Notes: a model not told the origin generated them from the letters alone. A stretch of DNA of 64,000 bases from Minisyncoccia bacterium (GCA_049695975.1 JBAVTE010000027.1:32972-96971), one strand, 5' to 3'. Counted from the first letter of the stretch, positions 4,519 through 64,000 are shown. Made by a program: numbers and translations.

Positions 4519-6211
4519 TAACACATTCTCATTCGAAATCTCATTAAGTGTTCTGAATCATCTCGGAAGGAACTTGTACAGGAATTTTATTACTGTACTT
4601 GGTGAAGCGATATCTAATTCATGGGATGCAGATGCAAATAATGTTTGGATAGATATTAATAGCGATAATAATTTTTTTATAAAAGATGATGGTTGTGGAA
4701 TGAATAACCACGATTTTCAGAATAAATTTTTGAAAATCGGCTACTCAAAGAGAAAGGGTAACGGAATATCCTCTCCGAATCATCGTCCATATATCGGTGC
4801 AAAGGGAATAGGTAAATTGGCGTTGCTTTCATGTGCTGAAAAAATAAGTGTCATATCCAAAACCAATAACACTGAATATGTCGGAGGTGTTATAGACAAT
4901 TCTGGTCTTACTAAAGCGATTGAACACGATCTGACCCCAGATAAGTATAAATTAGGAAAGGTGGATTTGAAATCATTCACGCAATATACAGCTGGGCATA
5001 AAAAAGGCACTATTATCTATTTTGATCAAACTAAAGAAGATATAAAAGGCACAATCCCGCATTTGAAGAAATTGATTGCATTATATTTTAGATTTTCTTT
5101 GATTGATGAGAGTTTTAAAATTTTTGTAAATAATGAACAAGTGACGTTTGGTGATATAAAGGACCTGTCAGATGCAACGGAATTTTTATGGAATATCAAC
5201 GACCTAAAAGATCCATATACCGACACATTATCCAAGCTCAAGAATGAGTCAATCGGTTTAAGCACTGCGTTGAAAATCAAAGGTTTTATCGCGACTGTTG
5301 AAAAACCGAGAAATTTAAAAATCGCTGGTACTGAGGAAAAAATCGGTATTGATTTATTTGTTAATGGACGATTAAGAGAAAGGGATATTTTAAAATACTT
5401 GCCTGCTTTTTCGACAAGACATATAGCGAGTTACCTTTATGGTCAAGTGCATTTTGATGAATTAGATAAGGATGGAAAAGATAGGTTTACTAGTAGTAGA
5501 GACGGGATCATTCCTGGAGATGAAAAATATAAAGGATTAATCGAAACTTTGAGAAATGAAATCCTAGAAAAAATTAGTAATAAGTGGGATGAACTTCGCT
5601 TGGCCAGAGATGAAGATGGTGATGATGAGAATCCAAGAAAAACCCTAAAAGAACGCAGAGCGCTCAGCTTGTACAACCTTTCATCAAAGGATTATTCAGG
5701 CGTTAAAAACAACAAAGTTGGTTCCTGGGTTAAAGAATTGCAACCAGATGCGGAATTCAATATCCCGTCATATGTCGACTGTTTTATATCGGAAAACCTT
5801 ATACGAAAATTTATCAAGCATAAAAAAATATCTCTTGATACCAAACGTGACACAATTAATCATTGGAAAAAAATTGAGAATACAGGAAAGACCAACGGTA
5901 ATTTGACTATTGATATAAGAGTTTCAAACGATGATATCTATTATTTGGATATGGAAAATCTTGTGAAAGTCACAGAGCCTAGAAGAGGGTTTCCTCCGAA
6001 TACTTTACTTACAGACGAAACACAGTTTACTCCTATAAGAAATGCTGTTATGCATACGGCTATGTTAACTGACCAAGCAAAGCAAAAGTTAACGACCGTC
6101 TATGAAAATATTAAAGGAAAAGTATTGATTCTTTTGGCTGATAAGAAGAAAGCTTCGACTAAAAGTATCAAAAAAACTAAAAAAGGTAGGGCAAATAATC
6201 TACTAAAGTAA
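4508..6211 (+). CDS. GHKL/HATPase_c_3 (paraMORC-like) ATP-binding protein, translationally coupled to dcm
   Basis: Bergerat-fold motifs EAISNSWDA, IKDDGCGM and GAKGIGKLA. The ATG at 4508 overlaps the dcm 3' end by 11 nt (alternative start at 4475). The C-terminal ~300 aa have no recognised domain. Confidence 0.65.
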   Translation: MKNNNTFSFEISLSVLNHLGRNLYRNFITVLGEAISNSWDADANNVWIDINSDNNFFIKDDGCGMNNHDFQNKFLKIGYSKRKGNGISSPNHRPYIGAKGIGKLALLSCAEKISVISKTNNTEYVGGVIDNSGLTKAIEHDLTPDKYKLGKVDLKSFTQYTAGHKKGTIIYFDQTKEDIKGTIPHLKKLIALYFRFSLIDESFKIFVNNEQVTFGDIKDLSDATEFLWNINDLKDPYTDTLSKLKNESIGLSTALKIKGFIATVEKPRNLKIAGTEEKIGIDLFVNGRLRERDILKYLPAFSTRHIASYLYGQVHFDELDKDGKDRFTSSRDGIIPGDEKYKGLIETLRNEILEKISNKWDELRLARDEDGDDENPRKTLKERRALSLYNLSSKDYSGVKNNKVGSWVKELQPDAEFNIPSYVDCFISENLIRKFIKHKKISLDTKRDTINHWKKIENTGKTNGNLTIDIRVSNDDIYYLDMENLVKVTEPRRGFPPNTLLTDETQFTPIRNAVMHTAMLTDQAKQKLTTVYENIKGKVLILLADKKKASTKSIKKTKKGRANNLLK

Positions 6212-6236
6212 AGTTTGGAGTCTTGATTAAAACAAC

Positions 6237-6416
6237 ATGTCCGACACCGACGATCCAATTAAAGACGAGCCAGATGAAGAAGCTCCGGACGAGGAAGTCG
6301 CCGAGCTTATGGAAACCCACGATCTCGATCAGGACACGGCCGAGCGTGTGCAGGAGATTATGGAAGATTTGGGTGTAGACGAGGACGACGCAGTCGAACT
6401 TGAGGAACTTCTTTAA
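6237..6416 (+). CDS. Small hyper-acidic protein (59 aa, about 45% Asp/Glu), absent from the ORF track
   Basis: ATG at 6237 and TAA at 6414-6416. Sequence is MSDTDDPIKDEPDEEAPDEEVAELMETHDLDQDTAERVQEIMEDLGVDEDDAVELEELL. Local GC is high. Confidence 0.45.
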   Translation: MSDTDDPIKDEPDEEAPDEEVAELMETHDLDQDTAERVQEIMEDLGVDEDDAVELEELL

Positions 6417-6426
6417 TTTATAGAAT

Positions 6427-7044
6427 ATGGAAATCTCAAAAGAAAGACTCGAAGAGTTAAGACAAATTTATAAAAAGGATTTTAATGCCGATCTTAGTGA
6501 TCAGGAATTGCACGATGCCGCTTTTAATCTTATTGGGTTTTATGACACGTTGTCAAAAATGGCATTTAAAGATATACAGAATCATCTGCGTTTGGAGAAA
6601 GAGCCGAACGGCTGGCCATTCACCGACAGTAGTGGTGACTGCAAATTTTGTGGTTACTATTTCGAGAAGAACGATTTTTGGTTTGATAAGTTCGGCTTTA
6701 AGTGTAAATTTTGCCAGAGAGCGGTCAATGACGGGATTATTCCCGGCGCAGTTTGTCGAAATAAGGAAAAATGGTTTTCTCTCGAAACTCTCAAGGAAAA
6801 ATTCGGCATTCATTCACAGACAGCTCGATCACTTATCAGAAAGGGAGAACTTAAGGCTCGGGTTATTTTAAACGATGCCGGCAAGCCACATTTTACGGTT
6901 TTTCTACGAGAAGAAAACTATAAATTTCTCAAGATTGGTAAAGACGTGCCGGTTAGCGAGCTTGAAGATTATGACTTGCAGGTGGCCAAATGGGCTGAGG
7001 ATTATAAAAAGAAAATGACCGAAGAACAGAAGTCTGGCAAGTAG
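6427..7044 (+). CDS. Hypothetical protein with Cys4 zinc-finger-like motif and possible HTH
   Basis: CKFCGYY...CKFCQ motif. The segment SLETLKEKFGIHSQTARSLIRKGELKA is helix-turn-helix-like. Higher GC than the host backbone. Confidence 0.5.
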   Translation: MEISKERLEELRQIYKKDFNADLSDQELHDAAFNLIGFYDTLSKMAFKDIQNHLRLEKEPNGWPFTDSSGDCKFCGYYFEKNDFWFDKFGFKCKFCQRAVNDGIIPGAVCRNKEKWFSLETLKEKFGIHSQTARSLIRKGELKARVILNDAGKPHFTVFLREENYKFLKIGKDVPVSELEDYDLQVAKWAEDYKKKMTEEQKSGK

Positions 7045-7573
7045 TCATATTTGCTTAACATTGCTTAACTTAAGCAAATCGTTTTAGGCTCTCAATTTTG
7101 GTCAAACCGGTGGGCTATGGTGAGGATGGTATCAAACGTCTACTCTTGATACAAAGCTCGCCCCAGGGGCAAACACGTGGCAGAAATCGGTGAGTTAAGT
7201 TCGGGCCCGGTTAGTTCCATTCACAAACTCGTAGAAATGGGATAAACTGTCATTATCTGGTAGCAAGCAGTGCTTCGTGAGCGATCTTGAGCTGATTCCA
7301 TTCGGCCAATTCTCGCAATATTTCGTTCCACCGGTTGCTTACCAAGTCCACATAAGTGAATTTCTCCGCGAAAATGAGTCCGCGCTCCGCGCGGTAATGG
7401 GAAGTTCGGCAAGAAAAGAAAAGGGCGTTTTGAAATCCACGGAGAGTGCGCTTGCGTGCAAATATAAGCAAGGACCGAAAAAGTAAGGACAGTCCTTGCT
7501 ACAGGATTATGTATTGCCATTTCTGGATTCTATCCAGAAACCGCCATATGTGTGTGCACATTACCATATAAAT

Positions 7574-7602
7574 TTGACAGAAAAACATACATCGTGTATA
7601 AT
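7574..7602 (+). promoter_or_regulatory. Consensus sigma70-type promoter (TTGACA-17-TATAAT) with strong RBS (AGGAGGTGAGG) ahead of the lipoprotein gene
   Basis: TTGACA at 7574-7579, a 17-nt spacer, and TATAAT at 7597-7602. AGGAGG lies about 8 nt upstream of ATG 7648. Confidence 0.7.
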
Positions 7603-7647
7603 ATTGAAAGACTGTTAAATTAACAAATATATAGGAGGTGAGGAAAA

Positions 7648-8022
7648 ATGAAAAAACTTTTTGTTTTTTCGCCGGTCGTAGTGTTCGTTCTGTGTTTGTC
7701 ACTTTGTGGATGCGAAGGGAGTGGTGATCGTGATGATCATTATTATAATGATCAATCATATGTTTCTGTCGTTATTCGTAACGACTGGATCAGAGATGTG
7801 CAGGTTTTTGTGGGTAATGTAAAATTTAGTCAGATTAAACCTGGTGAAAGCGGTTGGGTTTCGAGAAACCTAATCGGCGATGAACATTTATACATAACTA
7901 TCTGGTTTTGCAACTCGTACGGGTTCCCGATAATCGAAAGTGAGAAGTATAAATTTGATCGGGAGTATAGTGAGTACCACATGAATATTGAGTCACCACC
8001 AAACAATATTGATGTGTATTGA
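7648..8022 (+). CDS. Putative secreted lipoprotein
   Basis: Signal peptide MKKLFVFSPVVVFVLCLSLCGC with an LCGC lipobox-like cysteine. Consensus promoter and RBS upstream. Confidence 0.6.
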   Translation: MKKLFVFSPVVVFVLCLSLCGCEGSGDRDDHYYNDQSYVSVVIRNDWIRDVQVFVGNVKFSQIKPGESGWVSRNLIGDEHLYITIWFCNSYGFPIIESEKYKFDREYSEYHMNIESPPNNIDVY

Positions 8023-8942: not shown

Positions 8943-11606
8943 ATGTCAAAGAAAATAAAGTATGTGTATGCGTTTGAGGAAGGAAATAAAAGTATGAAAG
9001 AAATTCTTGGAGGAAAAGGAGCAAACCTCGCAGAGATGAAAAGTTTAGGTATCAATGTTCCACCAGGGTTTACCATTTCTACCGAAACTTGTAGAATTTA
9101 TAATGAAATTGGAAAGAAAATTCTTCCTGAAGTTGACGCACAAATACAGAGTAATCTTGTGAGTCTCGAAAAGAAAATGGGAAAAAAGCTTGGTGATGCT
9201 ACAGACCCTCTTCTTGTTTCTGTACGTTCTGGAGCTGTTGCATCGATGCCTGGAATGATGGATACTATTTTAAATCTTGGACTTAATGATAAGTCTGTCG
9301 TTGGTCTTGCAGAAAAGACGGGTAATGCGAGATTTGCATATGACTCATATAGAAGATTGATTCAAATGTTTGGTTCAGTTGTTCTCGAAGTTGAACATTC
9401 TGCCTTTGAGCATATTTTGGAATCAGTAAAAGATACTTGTGGTGCAAAGTACGATACTGATTTGACTGTGGAAAATTTGAAGGAGATTGTAAAAAAATAC
9501 AAGGAAATGGTGAAGAAAGAAACGAAGGCTGAATTTCCTCAGGATCCAAAAAAACAACTCGAACTTTCTATAAAAGCAGTTTTTAATTCTTGGAATAATT
9601 ACAGAGCTATAAGATATAGAGAAATAAATAATATAAAAGGACTCATCGGAACGGCTGTAAATATTCAGGCAATGGTTTTTGGAAATCTTGGTGATGACTC
9701 CGGAACGGGAGTTTGTTTTACTAGAAATCCGTCTACAGGGGAAGCAAAGTTTTATGGTGAATATCTGATGAATGCGCAAGGTGAAGATGTTGTTGCTGGT
9801 ATCAGAACCCCGCTTCCAGTTTCAGCATTGAAGACTCAGAGTCCGAAAATTTATAAAGAACTTGTAGATGTGTGCAATAGAGTTGAGAAGCATTACAAAG
9901 ATATGCAGGATATGGAATTTACGATTCAGCAAGGAGTACTATATATCTTGCAAGCGAGAAATGGAAAGAGAACAGCTACTGCCGCGGTGAAAATTGCTGT
10001 AGATATGGTGAAAGAAAAACTGATCACAAAAGAACAAGCAATACTTAGAATTGACCCAAATCAGCTTAACCAGCTTCTTCACAAACAGTTTGACCCTATC
10101 GCATTAAACAAGGCAGAAGCCATTGCACAGGGTCTTCCAGCGTCTCCAGGTGCAGCCGTGGGAGAAATAGTCTTTACTGCGACAGATGCATTTGAAAAGA
10201 CGAAGAAAGGCTTGGATGTAATTCTTGTTAGAATAGAAACTTCCCCAGAAGACATTGACGGAATGCACAGTGCAAAAGGAATTTTAACTGCAAGGGGTGG
10301 TATGACTTCCCATGCAGCTGTCGTCGCAAGAGGAATGGGAACTTGCTGTGTTGCTGGATGTTCAGATTTGACTATAAATGAAAAAGCAAAAACCTTGATA
10401 GTAAAAGATAAAGGAATTACTTTGAAGGAGGGAGATTTTATTTCACTTGATGGTTCAACAGGAAAAGTTTATGAAGGCAGACTCACTACAGAAGACCCAG
10501 AACTTTCTGGTGACTTTGGTACTTTGATGGCATGGGCTGATGGTTTCCGAAAAATCGGTGTTAGAACAAACGCAGATACTCCGACAGATGCAAAAATGGC
10601 AAGAAAATTCGGTGCGGAAGGTATTGGTCTTTGCAGAACAGAGCACATGTTTTTTGAAGGTAATAGAATTAAAGCCGTAAGAGAAATGATTCTTTCAAAT
10701 GATGTGGAAAGTAGAAAGAAAGCTTTAGCAAAACTTTTACCATATCAGAGAGAAGATTTTGTTGGCCTATTCCATACTATGGAGGGATTCCCAGTAACTG
10801 TGAGATATTTGGACCCACCACTTCACGAATTTTTACCTACAAAAGAAAAAGATATTGCTGAACTTTCTAAAGAAATGAAAGTTAGTGTTGAAATTCTCAA
10901 AGCAAAAATAGATGATCTTCATGAGTTTAATCCTATGCTTGGTCACAGAGGTTGCCGACTTGCCATTACATTTCCAGAAATTTACGATATGCAGACAAAT
11001 GCTGTGATAGAAGCAGCGATTCTTGTCAGCAAAAAGTGTCCTATTTGCGGAAAGAAACACAAAGTTGTTCCTGAAATAATGATTCCTTTAGTTGCTACCA
11101 CAAAAGAATTTGCTGTTTTGAAAGATAGCGTTGTCAAAATAGTAGAAGCAAGACTCAAAGAAGCAAAGATTAAAATGAATTATAAAATTGGAACAATGAT
11201 AGAAGTTCCGAGAGCAGCTCTCGTCGCAGACAAGATAGTAGAAGCTGGCGCAGAATTTTTCTCTTTTGGAACAAATGATCTCACGCAAATGGGTGCGGGA
11301 CTTTCAAGAGATGATGCAGGAAAATTCCTCAAAGAATATGTTGCACAAAATATTTATGAATTCGATCCATTTGAAGTCCTAGATCAAGAGGGGATCGGTG
11401 AGCTCATAAGAATTGCTATCAAGAAAGGAAGAGGTGTAAAGAAAGATTTGAAAGTCGGAATTTGTGGAGAACATGGTGGTGAACCTAGAACTGTGGAGTT
11501 CTGCCACAGAGAAGGATTTTCTTATGTTTCTTGCTCGCCATTCCGAGTGCCTATCGCACGACTTGCAGCAGCACAGGCGGTAGTAAAAGAAAAAGCAAAA
11601 AAATAG
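8943..11606 (+). CDS. ppdK: Pyruvate, phosphate dikinase
   Basis: 887 aa. N-terminus YAFEEGNKSMKEILGGKGANLAEM. PEP-utilising His motif GGMTSHAAVVARGMG. C-terminal PEP/pyruvate-binding domain present. Confidence 0.92.
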   Translation: MSKKIKYVYAFEEGNKSMKEILGGKGANLAEMKSLGINVPPGFTISTETCRIYNEIGKKILPEVDAQIQSNLVSLEKKMGKKLGDATDPLLVSVRSGAVASMPGMMDTILNLGLNDKSVVGLAEKTGNARFAYDSYRRLIQMFGSVVLEVEHSAFEHILESVKDTCGAKYDTDLTVENLKEIVKKYKEMVKKETKAEFPQDPKKQLELSIKAVFNSWNNYRAIRYREINNIKGLIGTAVNIQAMVFGNLGDDSGTGVCFTRNPSTGEAKFYGEYLMNAQGEDVVAGIRTPLPVSALKTQSPKIYKELVDVCNRVEKHYKDMQDMEFTIQQGVLYILQARNGKRTATAAVKIAVDMVKEKLITKEQAILRIDPNQLNQLLHKQFDPIALNKAEAIAQGLPASPGAAVGEIVFTATDAFEKTKKGLDVILVRIETSPEDIDGMHSAKGILTARGGMTSHAAVVARGMGTCCVAGCSDLTINEKAKTLIVKDKGITLKEGDFISLDGSTGKVYEGRLTTEDPELSGDFGTLMAWADGFRKIGVRTNADTPTDAKMARKFGAEGIGLCRTEHMFFEGNRIKAVREMILSNDVESRKKALAKLLPYQREDFVGLFHTMEGFPVTVRYLDPPLHEFLPTKEKDIAELSKEMKVSVEILKAKIDDLHEFNPMLGHRGCRLAITFPEIYDMQTNAVIEAAILVSKKCPICGKKHKVVPEIMIPLVATTKEFAVLKDSVVKIVEARLKEAKIKMNYKIGTMIEVPRAALVADKIVEAGAEFFSFGTNDLTQMGAGLSRDDAGKFLKEYVAQNIYEFDPFEVLDQEGIGELIRIAIKKGRGVKKDLKVGICGEHGGEPRTVEFCHREGFSYVSCSPFRVPIARLAAAQAVVKEKAKK

Positions 11607-30305: not shown

Positions 30306-30506
30306 CTAAATAACGAGTCTACACTCAATGGGAAATTTTGTTTTACATTCATCACAAACTATCCCCACACCTTCAATATGTTCCCAACTATTCTTTGAAA
30401 TGATTAGTTTGATAGGCGTATCTAAAATGTCTCCTTCCAATTCTTTTCCACAGTGGTTTCCACAAATCACAAAATACCTAAGATGTAATTTGCCTATTTC
30501 CATCAT
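30306..30506 (-). CDS. Small zinc-ribbon-like protein (CxxxC ... CxxC)
   Basis: 66 aa with CGNHC and CDEC pairs. Confidence 0.4.
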   Translation of the reverse strand: MMEIGKLHLRYFVICGNHCGKELEGDILDTPIKLIISKNSWEHIEGVGIVCDECKTKFPIECRLVI

Positions 30507-30576: not shown

Positions 30577-31800
30577 ATGACAGTTAAACAAAAAAAATCT
30601 CAAAAAGTCTTCGTGGGAATGTCTGGGGGAGTCGACTCTTCCGTTTCTGCAGCACTTTTAAAAAAGGATGGGTATGACGTAACTGGAGTTTTTATAAAAG
30701 TTTGGCAACCTGACTTTGTAGAATGCACTTGGCGAGAAGATAGACTTGACGCGATGAGAGTTTGTGCCAAACTTCACATACCTTTTTTTACACTTGATTT
30801 GGAAAAAGAATATAAAAAAGAAGTCGCTGACTATATGATAGATGAGTACAAAAAAGGAAAAACTCCGAATCCTGATGTAATGTGTAATAAATATGTAAAG
30901 TTCGGCGCTTTTTTTGATTGGGCTATAAAGCAGGGTGCTGATTTTGTGGCGACGGGGCATTATGCACGCGCAAGCAAAGTTCTAGAAGATAGTTCGTCGG
31001 AGTACGGGTTGGCTGCCCAGCGGGAAGTCAACCTCAAGTCTCGGCCTCGCTCGTCCGCTCCAGAAAGCGGACACCTGTGGCCTGTCTCGGCCTGCGAAGC
31101 CTCCAAAAACGAACTATCTTCTAGGACTTTACCTACCCAACTCTTGGCCGGCAAAGACAAGAATAAAGACCAATCATATTTTCTCTGGACTCTTACTCAA
31201 AAGCAATTACAAAAAACACTTTTTCCGATAGGCAACACCGAAAAACCAGAGGTCAGAAAAATTGCCAAAAAGCTCGGACTTTCGACTGCGGAGAAAAAGG
31301 ATAGTCAGGGTGTTTGCTTCCTCGGCAAATTTGATATGAAAGATTTTTTGAATCATTATATAAAAGAATGTCTTGGAAAAGTTTTAAATGAAAAAGGGGA
31401 GGTGGTAGGTAGTCATAATGGAGCAATATTTCTCACAATAGGGCAGAGACATGGTTTTAAAATTATAAAAAAAACAAATTCGAGCAAACCACTTTTTGTG
31501 ATAGCAAAAAATTTACAAAAAAATACAATTACTGTTTCTGAAAATCCAGTACAAGATACAGGTGAGTCCAAAGAAATTGAAATAGAGAAAGTCAGCTGGA
31601 CGGGAGGAGTGGATCCAGATTTATCAAAAAGATATTTTGCCAGAATCCGATATAGACAAACGCTTTTACCGTGTAAAATCAAAAAAAGTGTTGGTAGCGT
31701 TGTCATTTCTTTTGAAGAATCACAAAAAGCAGTTTCCTCGGGACAATCTCTAGTAATATATGATGGGGAAGTATGCCTCGGTGGCGGAATAATAAAATAA
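30577..31800 (+). CDS. mnmA: tRNA-specific 2-thiouridylase MnmA, carrying an in-frame ~50-aa GC-rich insertion
   Basis: PP-loop SGGVDSS, DQSYFLW, and C-terminal beta-barrel domain. A foreign segment lies between GHYARA and LAGKDKNKDQSYF. Confidence 0.88.
   Translation: MTVKQKKSQKVFVGMSGGVDSSVSAALLKKDGYDVTGVFIKVWQPDFVECTWREDRLDAMRVCAKLHIPFFTLDLEKEYKKEVADYMIDEYKKGKTPNPDVMCNKYVKFGAFFDWAIKQGADFVATGHYARASKVLEDSSSEYGLAAQREVNLKSRPRSSAPESGHLWPVSACEASKNELSSRTLPTQLLAGKDKNKDQSYFLWTLTQKQLQKTLFPIGNTEKPEVRKIAKKLGLSTAEKKDSQGVCFLGKFDMKDFLNHYIKECLGKVLNEKGEVVGSHNGAIFLTIGQRHGFKIIKKTNSSKPLFVIAKNLQKNTITVSENPVQDTGESKEIEIEKVSWTGGVDPDLSKRYFARIRYRQTLLPCKIKKSVGSVVISFEESQKAVSSGQSLVIYDGEVCLGGGIIK
30978..31128. mobile_element. 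151-bp GC-rich insertion with 19-bp terminal inverted repeats, in-frame within mnmA (MITE-like)
   Basis: Left end AGTTCTAGAAGATAGTTCG; right end CGAACTATCTTCTAGGACT (18/19 reverse-complementary). Interior is about 62% GC against about 33% in the host gene. Confidence 0.6.
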
Positions 31801-36270: not shown

Positions 36271-36370
36271 TGATAGTATTTTATCATATAAATAAAAAAG
36301 AGGTGATACTTTGCCTACTTTTTGAAATTTGAAATAAAACAAGTGTTTTTTCTGTGCATAACACCCCCCA

Positions 36371-36399
36371 TTGACGCTAATTTTACTATTTGTTACAAT
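36371..36399 (+). promoter_or_regulatory. Sigma70-like promoter (TTGACG-17-TACAAT) driving the precursor-peptide operon
   Basis: TTGACG at 36371-36376, 17-nt spacer, TACAAT at 36394-36399. Confidence 0.55.
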
Positions 36400-36472
36400 T
36401 TACAGTAGAAACCTTAGGTGTTCTAAGGTAGAGTAGGTTAGATAAGTTCATTAACAGAGAAAGGAGGTCTTT

Positions 36473-36592
36473 ATGCAGAGCCCAACTAAGAAGATGTTCA
36501 GTAAGAAAACGTTGAAGAACTCGTTTTTGCGGAGGAGGGTGTCTAGGGTCAGGTTGACTCAGGCCCTGAATGCCAGTAAGCCGGGAAGTTAA
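36473..36592 (+). CDS. 39-aa poly-cationic small ORF (candidate RiPP precursor peptide), absent from the ORF track
   Basis: AAAGGAGGT RBS lies 7 nt upstream. Sequence is MQSPTKKMFSKKTLKNSFLRRRVSRVRLTQALNASKPGS (net charge about +11). Directly followed by a hairpin, then the RRE/rSAM genes. Confidence 0.5.
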   Translation: MQSPTKKMFSKKTLKNSFLRRRVSRVRLTQALNASKPGS

Positions 36593-36612
36593 TCCCATAT
36601 TGGTGGTTGTCA

Positions 36613-36651
36613 GGTGGAACGCTCCGTATGAGCGTTCCACCTATTTTTTTT
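36613..36651 (+). terminator. Intrinsic terminator/attenuator between the precursor ORF and maturase genes
   Basis: GGTGGAACGCTC-CGTAT-GAGCGTTCCACC, a perfect 12-bp stem, followed by TATTTTTTTT. Confidence 0.75.
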
Positions 36652-36677
36652 GTTGTTTTTTGAATAAGGAGAATATC

Positions 36678-36887
36678 GTGAATGACAAATATGTAGCTCT
36701 TGTGGAAAACTTTACGTTGAAACAGTCTGTCACTTCTAGTGTCTTGTATTGTCTGAAGAGTGGTGCAATTTATGATCTTTCATTAGATCAAGTCGAGTTC
36801 TACATTTACTTGATGGATCTCAGACTATTGATCAGGTTATTGATAAATACCATAGGAAATCTAGATCCACAGTTGTACAGTTTCTAA
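36678..36887 (+). CDS. PqqD-like RRE (RiPP recognition element) N-terminal fragment, frame-shifted relative to the downstream rSAM
   Basis: GTG start with AAGGAG RBS. YCLKSGAIYDLSLDQVEFYIY matches the PqqD/RRE core. The family continuation (LDGSQTIDQVIDKYHRKSRSTVVQFLNHL) is in the -1 frame, contiguous with ORF 36893. Confidence 0.5.
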   Translation: MNDKYVALVENFTLKQSVTSSVLYCLKSGAIYDLSLDQVEFYIYLMDLRLLIRLLINTIGNLDPQLYSF

Positions 36888-38056
36888 ACCACTTGAAAGG
36901 TATTCAGGCACTGAGACTAATCAACAAACCTGTGCCAAGATTAATGCGACAAAATCTGGTACCTGATAGCCGACTCGAATCAGTTCATTTGGAAGCGAGC
37001 GGTGAATGTAACATGAAGTGTGTTCATTGCTACCAAGCAAAGTATGTCAAATCTGGTGAAAAACTTAATCACCGTGAGATTATACTTCTTCTTGATCAGC
37101 TACAGAATATGCAGGTTAGTAATGTTGGAATCAGTGGTGGTGAACCACTAATGATGCCTGATCTTACGGAAGTTATGAGAGCTATTGAAGCGAGAGATAT
37201 GAGAATCTCAGCTCTCTTTACAAATGGCCTTCTGGTCGACGACAAGTTAATCAAGGAGACGAATGCACTGCGAAGTAAGTTCTCATTCTTCATTAGCCTA
37301 GACTCGATTCCAGGACAGACACTTGCTTTCCGTGGAGTAGGGAAAAGAGCATCTAGGGTGATTCTTGAGCGGATAGTTTCAAAGATTAGGTTGTTAATTT
37401 CCAGCGGTATCAGTGTTGTCATCAATACTGTCGTAAATCTGGAAAATATCAGCTATCTTGATAAGATGTATGATTTGGTTACTGAGCTGAAAGTTGACAG
37501 TTGGAGGCTCGGTTTTCCAAAGATGACACCTGAATTCAAGAAACACAAGAATGGTTTCTATGTTGAATGGAATAGTATTGCTGAACACTGTTTGTCCTTG
37601 CTTCAGCGGCATTTGATAGGAGGCTTACCATTTCATCTGCAGATTGAGTATTTGTTCAGGGAAGAACTCTTTAAACAGGGTATACAAGAGCTATCTGACA
37701 TGGACTTTGTCTGTGATTACGAGGGTCGTCGTTCTGAGTGTTGTGTAAAGCCCAATGGAGATGTCGTCTCTTGTGCGTACTGTTCCGAGTTACCATTGGG
37801 TAACATCAGGAAGTCGTCGATTTGGGATATTTGGTATTCAACTCAAATGAGTGATTTGAAAAAGATCCAGATCAACGACGTGGTAGAGTGCAGGGGATGT
37901 GAGCTTCGTAGTCTTTGCGGAACTGGTTGCCGTGCGAATGCTCACTTTCTTCATGGAGATTTTCACAATGCTAAAGATGATTACGCTTGTTTAGCGGTAG
38001 CTTTCTTTAAGGAGAAAGTGGTCCCTCTTTTGAGGAAGTACAGTATGATTAGTTGA
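36776..38056 (+). CDS. Radical SAM/SPASM-domain peptide-modifying enzyme, with the RRE C-terminal half in-frame upstream of the annotated ATG 36893
   Basis: rSAM cluster CNMKCVHC (CX3CX2C). SPASM cysteines CAYC...CRGCELRSLCGTGC (CX2CX5CX3C). Frame open from 36776. Confidence 0.75.
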   Translation, partial: SFIRSSRVLHLLDGSQTIDQVIDKYHRKSRSTVVQFLNHLKGIQALRLINKPVPRLMRQNLVPDSRLESVHLEASGECNMKCVHCYQAKYVKSGEKLNHREIILLLDQLQNMQVSNVGISGGEPLMMPDLTEVMRAIEARDMRISALFTNGLLVDDKLIKETNALRSKFSFFISLDSIPGQTLAFRGVGKRASRVILERIVSKIRLLISSGISVVINTVVNLENISYLDKMYDLVTELKVDSWRLGFPKMTPEFKKHKNGFYVEWNSIAEHCLSLLQRHLIGGLPFHLQIEYLFREELFKQGIQELSDMDFVCDYEGRRSECCVKPNGDVVSCAYCSELPLGNIRKSSIWDIWYSTQMSDLKKIQINDVVECRGCELRSLCGTGCRANAHFLHGDFHNAKDDYACLAVAFFKEKVVPLLRKYSMIS

Positions 38057-62362: not shown

Positions 62363-63625
62363 ATGTTTAGAAGCAATTCAAATGGTCCGCGAAAATCGGG
62401 CACGCCTGCGCATGTAGGCTCAAATAGATTTGGAAATAGCCACAGAAGTGGCGGTTTTCAAGGTTGTAGAAGTGGAGGATTCCGAGGAGGATCTCGCGGT
62501 GGAGGAAATAGAGGGAAAACAGAAAATATAAATTTTTCTAAATTTATAAATAAAGTTCAAGTGACCGAAGAAGCTGTAATTTTTAAGCCCGAACACACAT
62601 TCGCTGATTTTAAAGTTGTTGATGAAATAAAGGATTCTATTAGAAATAAAGGTTATATATTACCAACTCCAATTCAAGATAGAACAATCCCTCAAATACT
62701 TATGGGAAATGATTTAGTCGGTGTCGCAAACACCGGTACAGGAAAAACTGCCGCTTTTCTTATTCCTCTTATAAATAAAATATTATTGAATAGAAAAGAA
62801 CAGGTGATGATCATTGTGCCTACTCGCGAACTCGCTATTCAAATAGATGACGAACTTAGACTATTTACTAAAAATATGAAAATATTTTCTGTTTGTTGCG
62901 TGGGTGGTGCACCGATAGGAAGACAAATTTCACAATTGAGATATCAATACAATTTCATAATTGGAACTCCAGGAAGAATCAAAGACCTTATTGACCGCAA
63001 GATGATTTTCCTCAATGAATTTAAAAGTCTTGTTCTCGATGAAGCGGATAGAATGCTTGATATGGGATTTGTCCATGATATGCGAGCGATAATGAAAGGA
63101 ATGCCAAAGGAAAGACACACGCTTTTCTTTTCAGCTACTATTTCCCCAGACATTGAAAAATTGATTGCAGAATTTTTGAAAAATCCGATTAGGATTTCCA
63201 TCAAAACTCAAGATGTTTCAAAAAATATTGAACAAGATGTTGTACATATTAAAAGAGGTGAAAATAAAACTGATATTCTTTGCGGATTGCTTGGCAATAA
63301 AGAACTTAGTAAGGTTTTGATTTTCGGACGCACCAAACATGGCGTAGAAAAACTTTCTAAAATTCTTTGTCAAAAAGGTTTTAAAGCCGAGTCTATACAC
63401 GGAGACAAAACTCACGGTAGTAGACAGCAAGCACTCAGACTTTTCAAAGACAATCATTCTCAAATTCTCGTGGCAACCGATGTAGCTGCTCGCGGTCTTG
63501 ATATTGCAGATATTAGTCATGTCATCAACTACGATATTCCTGCTACAAACGACGACTATGTGCATCGTATTGGTAGAACAGGCCGTGGTACTAAGAAAGG
63601 AAAGGCGATTACTTTTGTTGAGTAA
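62363..63625 (+). CDS. DEAD-box ATP-dependent RNA helicase with N-terminal Gly/Arg-rich tail
   Basis: Q-motif, AxTGTGKT, DEAD (VLDEADRML), SAT, and HRIGRTGR. Confidence 0.92.
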   Translation: MFRSNSNGPRKSGTPAHVGSNRFGNSHRSGGFQGCRSGGFRGGSRGGGNRGKTENINFSKFINKVQVTEEAVIFKPEHTFADFKVVDEIKDSIRNKGYILPTPIQDRTIPQILMGNDLVGVANTGTGKTAAFLIPLINKILLNRKEQVMIIVPTRELAIQIDDELRLFTKNMKIFSVCCVGGAPIGRQISQLRYQYNFIIGTPGRIKDLIDRKMIFLNEFKSLVLDEADRMLDMGFVHDMRAIMKGMPKERHTLFFSATISPDIEKLIAEFLKNPIRISIKTQDVSKNIEQDVVHIKRGENKTDILCGLLGNKELSKVLIFGRTKHGVEKLSKILCQKGFKAESIHGDKTHGSRQQALRLFKDNHSQILVATDVAARGLDIADISHVINYDIPATNDDYVHRIGRTGRGTKKGKAITFVE

Positions 63626-63639
63626 AAAGCTCGCTCTTA

Positions 63640-63870
63640 TTACAATTTTAAAAATTTCTCGGGGTCCTGTCGACCTATTCCATTTGAAATACGCACATAA
63701 TTTTCTGCTGAAAATTTGTTATTCCTTACAGGAACAGTACACCTTTCACATTTTGAATACAAAATGTTCAAGGTCTTTCATTTGGGTCCCTACCCAAATT
63801 TCAACTCGGCCCGTCGGCCTGCGTAATGTATTTCAAAAGGAACAGGATCGCCACCCCTAACAAAATTTTT
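63640..63870. ncRNA. GC-rich intergenic region with long-range complementarity (candidate structured RNA, class undetermined)
   Basis: About 45% GC against about 30% in flanks. GGGGTCCTGT (63653-63662) can pair with ACAGGATCGCCACCCC (63842-63857). Local hairpin CATTTTG-aataca-CAAAATG. Confidence 0.3.
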
Positions 63871-64000
63871 AAAATTGTAATACTCGCTCGTAAACAGATT
63901 TACTACGCTAACTCGTTCAGAAGCCAGAACTTAACTCACTTGCAGTCAGGAATTTGCATATTTTTATGCAAGTTGTATTATGTAAACACTAGCTAAGAAA

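Follow-up and report, generated by a model that had tools for sequence, protein, structure and literature searches.

The GC clusters and byp elements of yeast mitochondria are GC-rich palindromes that lie in AT-rich genomes. The intervening sequences and expansion hairpins of bacterial rRNA occupy a fixed, tolerant tip, are patchily distributed, have unrelated sequences in different lineages, and are held by a long closing stem. Within protein-coding genes, Rickettsia palindromic elements (RPEs) are palindromes of ~100-150 bp found in frame in conserved, unrelated housekeeping and metabolic genes of a small AT-rich genome, and are translated as an extra peptide where the protein fold tolerates it (PMC10969869). 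Bacterial MITEs (Correia/NEMIS, ERIC, RUP and BOX) measure 100-200 bp, carry terminal inverted repeats (TIRs), form a long RNA hairpin, and are occasionally fused in frame within genes (PMC10969869). In the mitochondria of Nematomorpha, long inverted repeats are found in expressed protein-coding genes, where structure and coding coexist (PMC6649704). Replication template switching is reported to make long perfect stems and keep them complementary, leaving clustered compensatory changes (PMC8794818).

The genomes of CPR/Patescibacteria are tiny and tightly packed, and a 155-nt GC-rich structure that is kept in an important tRNA-modification gene therefore needs explaining. We characterized such a structure in mnmA of a Minisyncoccia bacterium. 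It shares with RPEs the form of a palindromic, in-frame ORF insert of roughly that size class (155 nt versus ~100-150 bp; open in the mnmA frame), and with MITEs the presence of terminal inverted repeats (22-nt arms, complementary at 21 of 22 positions). The explanation we prefer, to which we give about even chances, is that a palindromic insertion in a permissive loop has been kept at the nucleic-acid level, with a putative role for its fold.

A hairpin-forming segment in the mnmA reading frame

We use "the window" for the whole stretch of DNA that was analysed, 64,000 nucleotides in length. Its mnmA ORF (Table 1) has a 407-aa product in the ORF list, 100% identical to a protein annotated as MnmA in an NCBI MAG of a Minisyncoccia bacterium (Patescibacteria/CPR; 126.5-kb contig). 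Matches to the solved MnmA structures 2hma, 9hlv and 2der (E = 1e-93 to 1e-88) run from end to end except for query residues 135-187, which have no structural counterpart; the alignment jumps from query 134/chain 137 to query 188/chain 144. The GHYAR..KDQSYF span measures 76 aa in the window MnmA versus a modal 28 aa among 120 homologues, and the net insertion is ~48 codons, through which the mnmA frame is open and in phase. A preliminary description, made from the sequence alone, had proposed an in-frame GC-rich insertion in mnmA, to be checked by orthologue alignment and structure mapping. The insertion is seen against both the 120 homologues and the three structures, and is borne out by direct reading of the sequence, the ORF and the GC peak. 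Because 56 of the 120 homologues have at least six extra residues at the insert site, we regard it as the main indel hotspot of MnmA. The Pfam record for P0001 holds only MnmA domains and no further domain.

Nowhere in the window is GC content higher than in the element, where it peaks at 0.67 (per 100 nt) versus 0.344 overall (34.4% GC); the GC content of its core is 62-67%. Its arms are 22 nt each, complementary at 21 of 22 positions (95%), and are separated by a spacer of 111 nt. These arms support the palindromic nature of the insertion that had been suggested; the 19-bp, 18/19 terminal repeats given in the preliminary description are real but form the inner part of the full arms, and the length of 151 bp given there is corrected to 155 nt, as delimited by the inverted repeat. 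The outer stem overlaps host codons, so the exact insertion edges cannot be fixed. The 64 kb contain just three inverted repeats that are 20 nt or longer, lie within 300 nt and have no more than about one mismatch, and none of comparable quality was found in 30 first-order Markov shuffles of the window.

For the + strand of the element, the predicted folding energy is -81 kcal/mol (z = -7.2); for the - strand, it is -90 kcal/mol (z = -7.0). None of 200 shuffles folded as stably. The predicted shape is a long closing helix that encloses three GC-rich hairpins. The antisense strand of the element pairs slightly better than the sense strand.

In the protein, the insert maps to a predicted surface loop. 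An AlphaFold2 model (m1dc952ab84fe; 55 homologues used, mean pLDDT 79.9; strands assigned by DSSP) gives pLDDT below 50 at residues 139-176 and 178-181, and since residues 139-181 fall between strands 130-134 and 187-191, the insert would occupy the tip of a beta-hairpin. The surface-loop position that the preliminary description had proposed is thus borne out by the model and by the gap in the alignment to solved MnmA structures. As with RPEs, the insert appears to be located at the surface and to be compatible with the fold, judging from the AlphaFold model and from its absence in solved MnmA. One example of a tryptic peptide from the loop is SSAPESGHLWPVSACEASK.

Table 1. Positions in the window of mnmA, of the hairpin-forming element and of the parts of each
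Feature	Position	Strand	Basis
mnmA CDS (tRNA 2-thiouridine(34) synthase), host of the insert	30577..31800	+	ORF list; PDB matches; NCBI MAG match
Codons for host beta-strand 130-134, the N-terminal one of the insert-bearing beta-hairpin	30964..30978	+	DSSP on AlphaFold model
Whole hairpin-forming element (closing helix and core), 155 nt, in frame, ~residues 134-185	30976..31130	+	inverted repeat I4; fold z; covariance-model match, 165 bits
5' arm of closing helix (AAAGTTCTAGAAGATAGTTCGT), codes K-V-L-E-D-S-S	30976..30997	+	inverted-repeat search; pairing kept, sequence changed in L001 and L002
Codons for the loop of residues 139-181, predicted to be disordered	30991..31119	+	AlphaFold2 pLDDT
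Inner 5-bp extension of closing helix	30997-31001 with 31102-31106	+	consensus structure
GC-rich conserved core	30998..31108	+	consensus structure; nucleotide and third-position identity; dS; Fisher p
Core hairpin	31006-31033	+	consensus structure
Core helix	31043-31050 with 31094-31101	+	consensus structure
Core hairpin	31053-31072	+	consensus structure
Small core hairpin	31081-31091	+	consensus structure
3' arm of closing helix (ACGAACTATCTTCTAGGACTTT), codes N-E-L-S-S-R-T-L	31109..31130	+	inverted-repeat search; helix pairing counts
Codons for host beta-strand 187-191, the C-terminal one of the same beta-hairpin	31135..31149	+	DSSP on AlphaFold model

Several other identities were considered for the segment. 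No relevant Rfam family was found at the gathering threshold over the whole window, or at E up to 10 over positions 30900-31220, where the noise match PART1_2 (10.9 bits) was the only one returned. A self-splicing intron (group I or II) or known ribozyme was rejected for want of an Rfam match, and an intein was rejected given an insert of ~48 aa versus at least ~130 aa and no Pfam domain beyond MnmA. Mimicry of an anticodon stem-loop by the core hairpins was rejected by eye, as they have loops of 3-6 nt in which the U33/purine-37 pattern is missing. A promoter/terminator scan gave results at chance level.

Pairing and sequence conservation among orthologous copies

The identical codon site holds the same element in two further Patescibacteria lineages. 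One copy, L001 (protein P0011), is on a JGI contig of 428 kb (Ga0376277_0000148). The other, in protein P0002, is present in L002 and L003 (ENA) and in L028 (JGI), the last of which is the mnmA of the L002 species. The gene order ychF - hypothetical - mnmA - ATP-cone is common to all of these loci. The same site is occupied in independent assemblies, and the element is neither an assembly artefact nor a one-off. Three full copies (window, L001 and L002) were compared; the three indels between them are each a multiple of 3, and no in-frame stop is found in any of the three.

In the closing helix, pairing has been kept while the sequence has changed. Orthologous copies agree at 36-62% of positions in the stem regions, and 15 of 28 pairs on the + strand (16 of 34 on the - strand) are changed on both sides. 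Paired cells nevertheless make up 92.6% of the closing helix in the sense orientation and 99% in the antisense orientation, versus ~40% in slid controls, and none of 500 shuffles reached the observed values. Compensatory changes that preserve a helix, a feature looked for in structured RNAs, are thus present for the closing helix; in the core, covariation comes down to one or two pairs because there are just three full copies. The double-changed pairs come in runs, for example at closing-helix columns 5-10.

With respect to strand, six A.C mismatches on the + strand become G.U on the - strand versus one the opposite way, a difference that is not significant. With more A.C mismatches on the sense strand, the sense-mRNA structure is not clearly the selected form. 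The mismatch asymmetry between the strands may stem from a purine bias in the coding strand. An antisense ORF (30960-31160; 66 aa) is interrupted by stops in L002 and was rejected on that ground.

The core is conserved in a manner that differs from the rest of the gene. Its nucleotide identity among the three genomes is 84-86%, and its third-position identity is 84-89% versus 49-57% in the rest of mnmA, while amino-acid identity in the core (68-74%) is not above that of the rest of MnmA. Nei-Gojobori dS is 0.15-0.25 in the core versus 1.34-2.35 in the rest of mnmA, 6-10 times lower, and dN/dS is 0.52-1.11 versus 0.09-0.12 (Fisher p for core versus rest, 6e-4 to 6e-7). The depression of dS is seen again in a second, unrelated family of hairpins that occupies this site (family C, described below), with core dS of 0.10-0.68 versus 1.4-5.0. 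Conservation in the core, with its repeat in family C, therefore exceeds what the coding frame needs, as is expected of structured RNA. Because this constraint acts on the nucleotides rather than on the amino acids, the segment does not look like an ordinary lineage-specific protein domain. Judged by sequence comparison, the element evolves like a structured RNA rather than like a protein segment, and the combination of a conserved core with free termini appears as the pattern of a structured RNA, the reverse of that in TIR transposons.

Copy number, decay and other hairpins at the mnmA site

No second copy was found in the 64-kb window with the TIR pattern (3 mismatches), blastn-short, nhmmer or a covariance model with filters off, and none was found in 127 kb of related loci. 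The window searches returned the element itself and short, unrelated terminator-like hairpins; the covariance model scored the element at 165 bits and gave no second full-length match. Exact-pattern scans were run on collections without the window's own genome and without the L001 genome or its JGI sample. In GTDB species representatives, they gave 23 matches, all of them chance matches in GC-rich genomes; the sole Patescibacteria match, L011, was checked and is unrelated. In JGI metagenome contigs, they gave the L028 mnmA plus 2 chance matches and nothing else. Nothing real was found in viral contigs, phages or plasmids.

At the protein level, a HMMER search with the insert peptide against 1.84 billion representative proteins, which are clustered at 50% identity such that a representative may lack an insert that cluster members have, returned only two spurious tandem-repeat proteins. 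A chimeric peptide query built from six frames and run against 5.8 billion proteins gave P0001 only and missed known relatives, so was insensitive, and a profile of three insert peptides gave 12 word candidates, none of which scored, and was uninformative. A dispersed family with a conserved peptide in unrelated genes, as described for RPEs, was not seen.

The ends of the element bear on the MITE-like identity put forward in the preliminary description. There is no target-site duplication (TSD), the flanks (GCAAGC / element / ACCTAC) being without a direct repeat. The sequence of the TIRs is not conserved among copies (stems 36-62% versus core 84-86%), and since the arms differ completely and the interior is conserved, the arrangement is the opposite of that in an element whose TIRs are recognised by a transposase. 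With no second copy in the window or in 127 kb of related loci, no TSD and no conservation of arm sequence, a MITE-like identity is not supported. The search for further copies of the TIR or element that had been suggested was run, and none were found in the window and 127 kb of relatives. Orthologues that have the segment, together with no other TIR copies found, are what that description had itself set against its proposal.

In a rough NJ tree, the window MnmA groups with P0002, P0003/4, P0005/9 and P0006-8/10. Across the loci of this group, the element can be followed through a decay series, from the full element (window, L002) to L031, where an AT-rich hairpin replaces the centre and the GGAGCACGG and CAAGTCTC ends are kept, to L004, where the stem is left, the core is deleted and GC is 38%, to L037, which has the outermost stem alone (GCAAAAC../..GTTCTTTTGC), and to L036, where no element remains. 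The decayed remnants remain in frame. This series suggests that the element was ancestral in the clade, is dispensable, and was lost from the inside out; the core in particular is dispensable, given several relatives that have lost it and have an intact mnmA. Inner-stem sequence common to the window, L002, L004 and L031 points to vertical descent within the clade, and with such descent the low core dS between the window and L002 needs constraint.

The L001 MnmA is found in a different clade of the rough NJ tree. Either the element would be older and have been lost many times, or it would have moved, the tree being too weak to decide. The placement of L001 in another clade leaves room for horizontal spread, and not selection, behind the similarity of the cores.

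Other Paceibacteria have unrelated inserts at the same mnmA site, and every insert that is readable as DNA is a long hairpin. The L031 insert has 31-nt arms, the L033 insert a perfect 22-bp stem, and the L045 insert an AT-rich 16-bp stem. In family C (L032, L034 and L035), the closing stems GACGGCAGAAAC, GCAAGCAGAAAA and GTCCGAAGAAAA are all different and each is self-complementary. No similarity of the core of the window's element (family A) to the family C core was detected with nhmmer or a covariance model. In L045, one mnmA gene has the same ~30-nt sequence at two sites, which shows duplication at work in this gene. In the related loci, no strong inverted repeat other than the mnmA hairpin lies within a coding region. 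A peptide-level test for hidden palindromes in 58 other inserted homologues had low power, the known hairpin itself not being significant. Loops of the 'VESKKLKVESK' type are mostly non-palindromic by the peptide-level test, and that of P0039 is palindromic at the DNA level.

Explanations for a retained hairpin and comparison with known systems

In the preferred explanation, palindromic hairpin-forming DNA would have entered the tip of the MnmA beta-hairpin in the ancestor of a Paceibacteria/Minisyncoccia lineage, its source being either selfish DNA or the product of a template switch. The ribosome most likely reads through the element, which would yield a disordered loop of ~48 residues that the enzyme tolerates, and evolution would keep the nucleic-acid fold and not the peptide. 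In the closing helix of 22-30 bp, the sequence would be free and the pairing preserved; compensatory selection could achieve this, as could copying templated by the hairpin (replication template switching). In the GC-rich, multi-hairpin core, the sequence itself would be conserved, synonymous sites included, despite the AT pressure in a genome of 34% GC. Such maintenance would need either purifying selection at the nucleotide level or recent spread; since descent looks vertical in the clade of the window and L002, selection on the nucleic-acid fold is favoured. We suggest that the element could be a module of structured RNA (or of single-stranded DNA) that lies within the coding region of mnmA, that it can be lost by deletion from the inside out, and that its likeliest role would be as a cis-acting structure in the mnmA transcript, with an effect on transcript stability, on processing or on pausing of the ribosome.

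A selfish palindrome similar to RPEs or MITEs, multi-copy or spreading horizontally, translated, without a host function, and with similar cores because it is young, is in our view unlikely though far from negligible. The size, the palindrome and the in-frame position in a housekeeping gene of a small AT-rich genome fit the RPE description (PMC10969869), and the patchy distribution on the MnmA tree, the several unrelated hairpin families at one site, the frequent decay and loss, and the ~30-nt duplication within the L045 gene would all be in keeping with such an origin. Such a palindrome is harder to reconcile with the lack of a second copy in the 64-kb window or 127 kb of relatives, with GTDB and JGI pattern scans that gave mnmA copies plus chance matches and with viral contigs, phages and plasmids that gave nothing, with the missing target-site duplication, with terminal repeats that are the least conserved part (36-62%) and an interior that is the most conserved, and with an inner-stem sequence common to the window, L002, L004 and L031 that points to vertical descent. 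Selection could also be dispensed with altogether, if template switching at a small native palindrome had grown a hairpin and re-paired it in a tolerant loop as a neutral by-product. Template switching is reported to create hairpins and, in one step, apparent multi-base compensatory changes (PMC8794818), and the double-sided pair changes are clustered in runs here. In addition, the outermost pairs overlap the host codons K-V, K-T or Y-V, the 3' arm mirrors the codons of each lineage, and the site is the main indel hotspot of MnmA. We nevertheless consider this neutral origin improbable, as it leaves unexplained a non-palindromic core of 62-67% GC that is 85% identical despite saturated synonymous sites in the host gene, as well as the same pattern in family C, and AT-biased mutation should erode the core, as in the remnants L004 and L031.

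Selection for the function of a peptide, in a lineage-specific protein loop or domain, would be consistent with an open, in-frame segment of similar length and composition in several orthologues. It is very improbable given the core dN/dS of 0.5-1.1 versus ~0.1 in the rest of MnmA, pLDDT below 50 throughout in the AlphaFold model, close relatives without the segment or with unrelated sequence, and a P0001 with no Pfam domain beyond MnmA. We give still less credence to an intervening sequence that is removed after transcription, for example by RNase III cutting and ligation, or that is bypassed by the ribosome, leaving a protein without the loop. A perfect stem of 22-30 bp draws the flanks together and would suit RNase III, as in rRNA intervening sequences, but the frame is open and without stops in three copies and in the decayed remnants, every indel between copies is a multiple of 3, and no Rfam intron or ribozyme family was matched. 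We know of no mRNA splicing of this cut-and-ligate kind in bacteria. The open frame, the absence of stops and the indels in multiples of 3 argue for translation.

Returning to the preferred explanation, of an insertion kept for its fold, a bolder form of it can be offered as a tentative possibility: a fixed codon position in mnmA of Paceibacteria could host a class of RNA modules, each with a covarying helix and a conserved core, under purifying selection as RNA and translated as a throw-away loop. One family of these modules would be represented by the window element, which may be cis-acting or may be set free as a small RNA. Selection on the fold, if real, would mean that the same nucleotides serve both an RNA element and a protein, with the protein paying through a disordered loop, and this would hint at unexplored post-transcriptional control in unculturable organisms; if the wider class of modules is real, it would represent a new kind of dual-use coding region in minimal-genome bacteria. 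If the element is instead a selfish palindrome, the RPE phenomenon, in which in-frame selfish DNA shapes proteins, would extend to a very different bacterial radiation, and one loop would be a site of recurrent landing and decay. With either reading, the series of full, half-decayed, stem-only and empty sites is a clean natural one in which the birth and death of hairpins within genes can be studied.

Among known systems, RPEs come nearest to the mnmA element, and the coding palindromes of Nematomorpha mitochondria are also close. The mnmA element is like RPEs in its size, palindrome, in-frame position in a housekeeping gene and fold-compatible site. RPEs, however, form dispersed families with a conserved peptide, R. 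conorii having 44 insertions, while the mnmA element was found at one locus with no other copy in the sequences searched. It also differs from RPEs in being strongly GC-enriched relative to its host, in having ends that are not conserved in sequence, and in having a core that is more conserved than synonymous sites would lead one to expect, although the peptide it encodes is unconstrained. The likeness to MITEs consists of size, terminal inverted repeats and a long hairpin fold; unlike MITEs, the mnmA element was found without a TSD, multiple copies, a conserved TIR or a partner transposase, and its centre is conserved and not its ends. The long inverted repeat inside a coding gene recalls the Nematomorpha, where each genome has many such repeats and both arms code for conserved parts of proteins, in contrast to mnmA, where there is one site and the arms code for a loop that is not constrained.

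In yeast mitochondria, byp elements break the frame and are bypassed, whereas the mnmA element keeps the frame. The mnmA hairpins are similar to rRNA intervening sequences in that they are located at a fixed tip, are patchy, are unrelated between lineages and have a long closing stem, but rRNA intervening sequences are cut by RNase III without religation, and the mnmA element is in the coding region of an mRNA and appears to be translated. Template switching could account for the closing helix but not for the conserved, non-palindromic, GC-rich core. The mnmA element differs from known in-frame palindromes in the single site at which it was found, its GC-richness relative to the host, its free ends and the RNA-like signature of its core.

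Structured intergenic regions

Three kinds of structured or GC-enriched sequence were found between genes of the window, and their positions, together with that of a small ORF beside mnmA, are collected in the table.

Features of the window outside the mnmA insert
Feature	Position	Strand	Location or basis
Nested inverted repeat, 245 nt	63638-63882	+	Intergenic, 3´ of the ORF at 62363-63625
Structured region	21950-22175		Between tRNA-Val (21891-21965, +) and tRNA-Pro (22187-22259, -)
GC-enriched intergenic stretches	6212-6426, 7045-7647, 36343-36892		GC scan
Small ORF, 66 aa, CxxC...CxxC pattern	30306-30506	-	Just upstream of mnmA, on the opposite strand

The nested inverted repeat is closed by a perfect stem of 20 bp (TATTACAATTTTAAAAATTT / AAATTTTTAAAATTGTAATA), inside which lie a second stem (63674-63692 / 63828-63846) and a multi-hairpin core. 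Its folding energy is -85 kcal/mol (z = -9.6), and an Rfam search of the repeat returned no matching family. Possible readings are an ncRNA missing from the annotation and a palindromic element. The repeat is built in the same way as the GC-rich hairpin insert of mnmA, and the same architecture is seen in an intergenic nested inverted repeat of a relative's mnmA locus (L037, 5006-5171), where perfect 26-nt arms are separated by 114 nt.

The region between the two tRNA genes contains a direct repeat, with 40-nt copies at 21956-21995 and 22127-22166 (spacing 171 nt) that each contain a perfect 18-bp hairpin (TATCGCCCACATTAAAAT..ATTTTAATGTGGGCGATA); the direct repeat is visibly longer by a few bases on both sides. 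Between the copies lies a structured segment of ~130 nt, ~95 nt of it GC-rich. For the entire region the folding energy is -113 kcal/mol (z = -12). Its appearance is that of an ncRNA or a small insertion adjoining a tRNA gene.

GC content in the GC-enriched stretches reaches 0.58 per 100 nt, compared with 34% window-wide. These stretches are candidate divergent ncRNAs; an Rfam scan of 6150-7700 gave zero matches, even at E values up to 1.

Genes neighbouring mnmA

The gene calls of three relatives (L031, L036 and L037) each include one of 66-77 aa in the position and on the strand of the small ORF. The ORF encodes a conserved small protein, possibly of the zinc-ribbon type. Directly upstream of ychF, L031, the relative with a half-decayed mnmA insert, carries a large serine recombinase (1-1019; 555 aa, Resolvase/Recombinase Pfam domains); this gene is absent from the matching position of the window.

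Inserts and repeats at other sites in MnmA

The mnmA of L002, a relative with the full element, also carries a small GC-rich hairpin insert between FVE and CTW (~487-513, codons 49-57; CCTGCCCGA..TCAGGCGGG, encoding PAR...SGG). Three homologues that are not closely related carry this insert (L002's MnmA, P0060 and P0107), with differing loop sequences, and the window's mnmA is without it.

The mnmA of L045 (protein P0039) holds a near-identical 33-nt sequence, AAAGTCAAAAGTC[T/C]ATAAAGTCAAAAGA.AAT (peptide KSIKSK), at two separate sites, 10398-10430 and 11016-11048. The copy at the main hotspot, the indel-prone GHYAR..KDQSYF loop, makes up the 5´ side of a 16-bp hairpin; that near residue 342 has no partner arm. 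Several homologues likewise have a 'KSIKSKE / KLKVESK' motif at each of the two sites. This pattern suggests that sequence was copied intragenically between loops.
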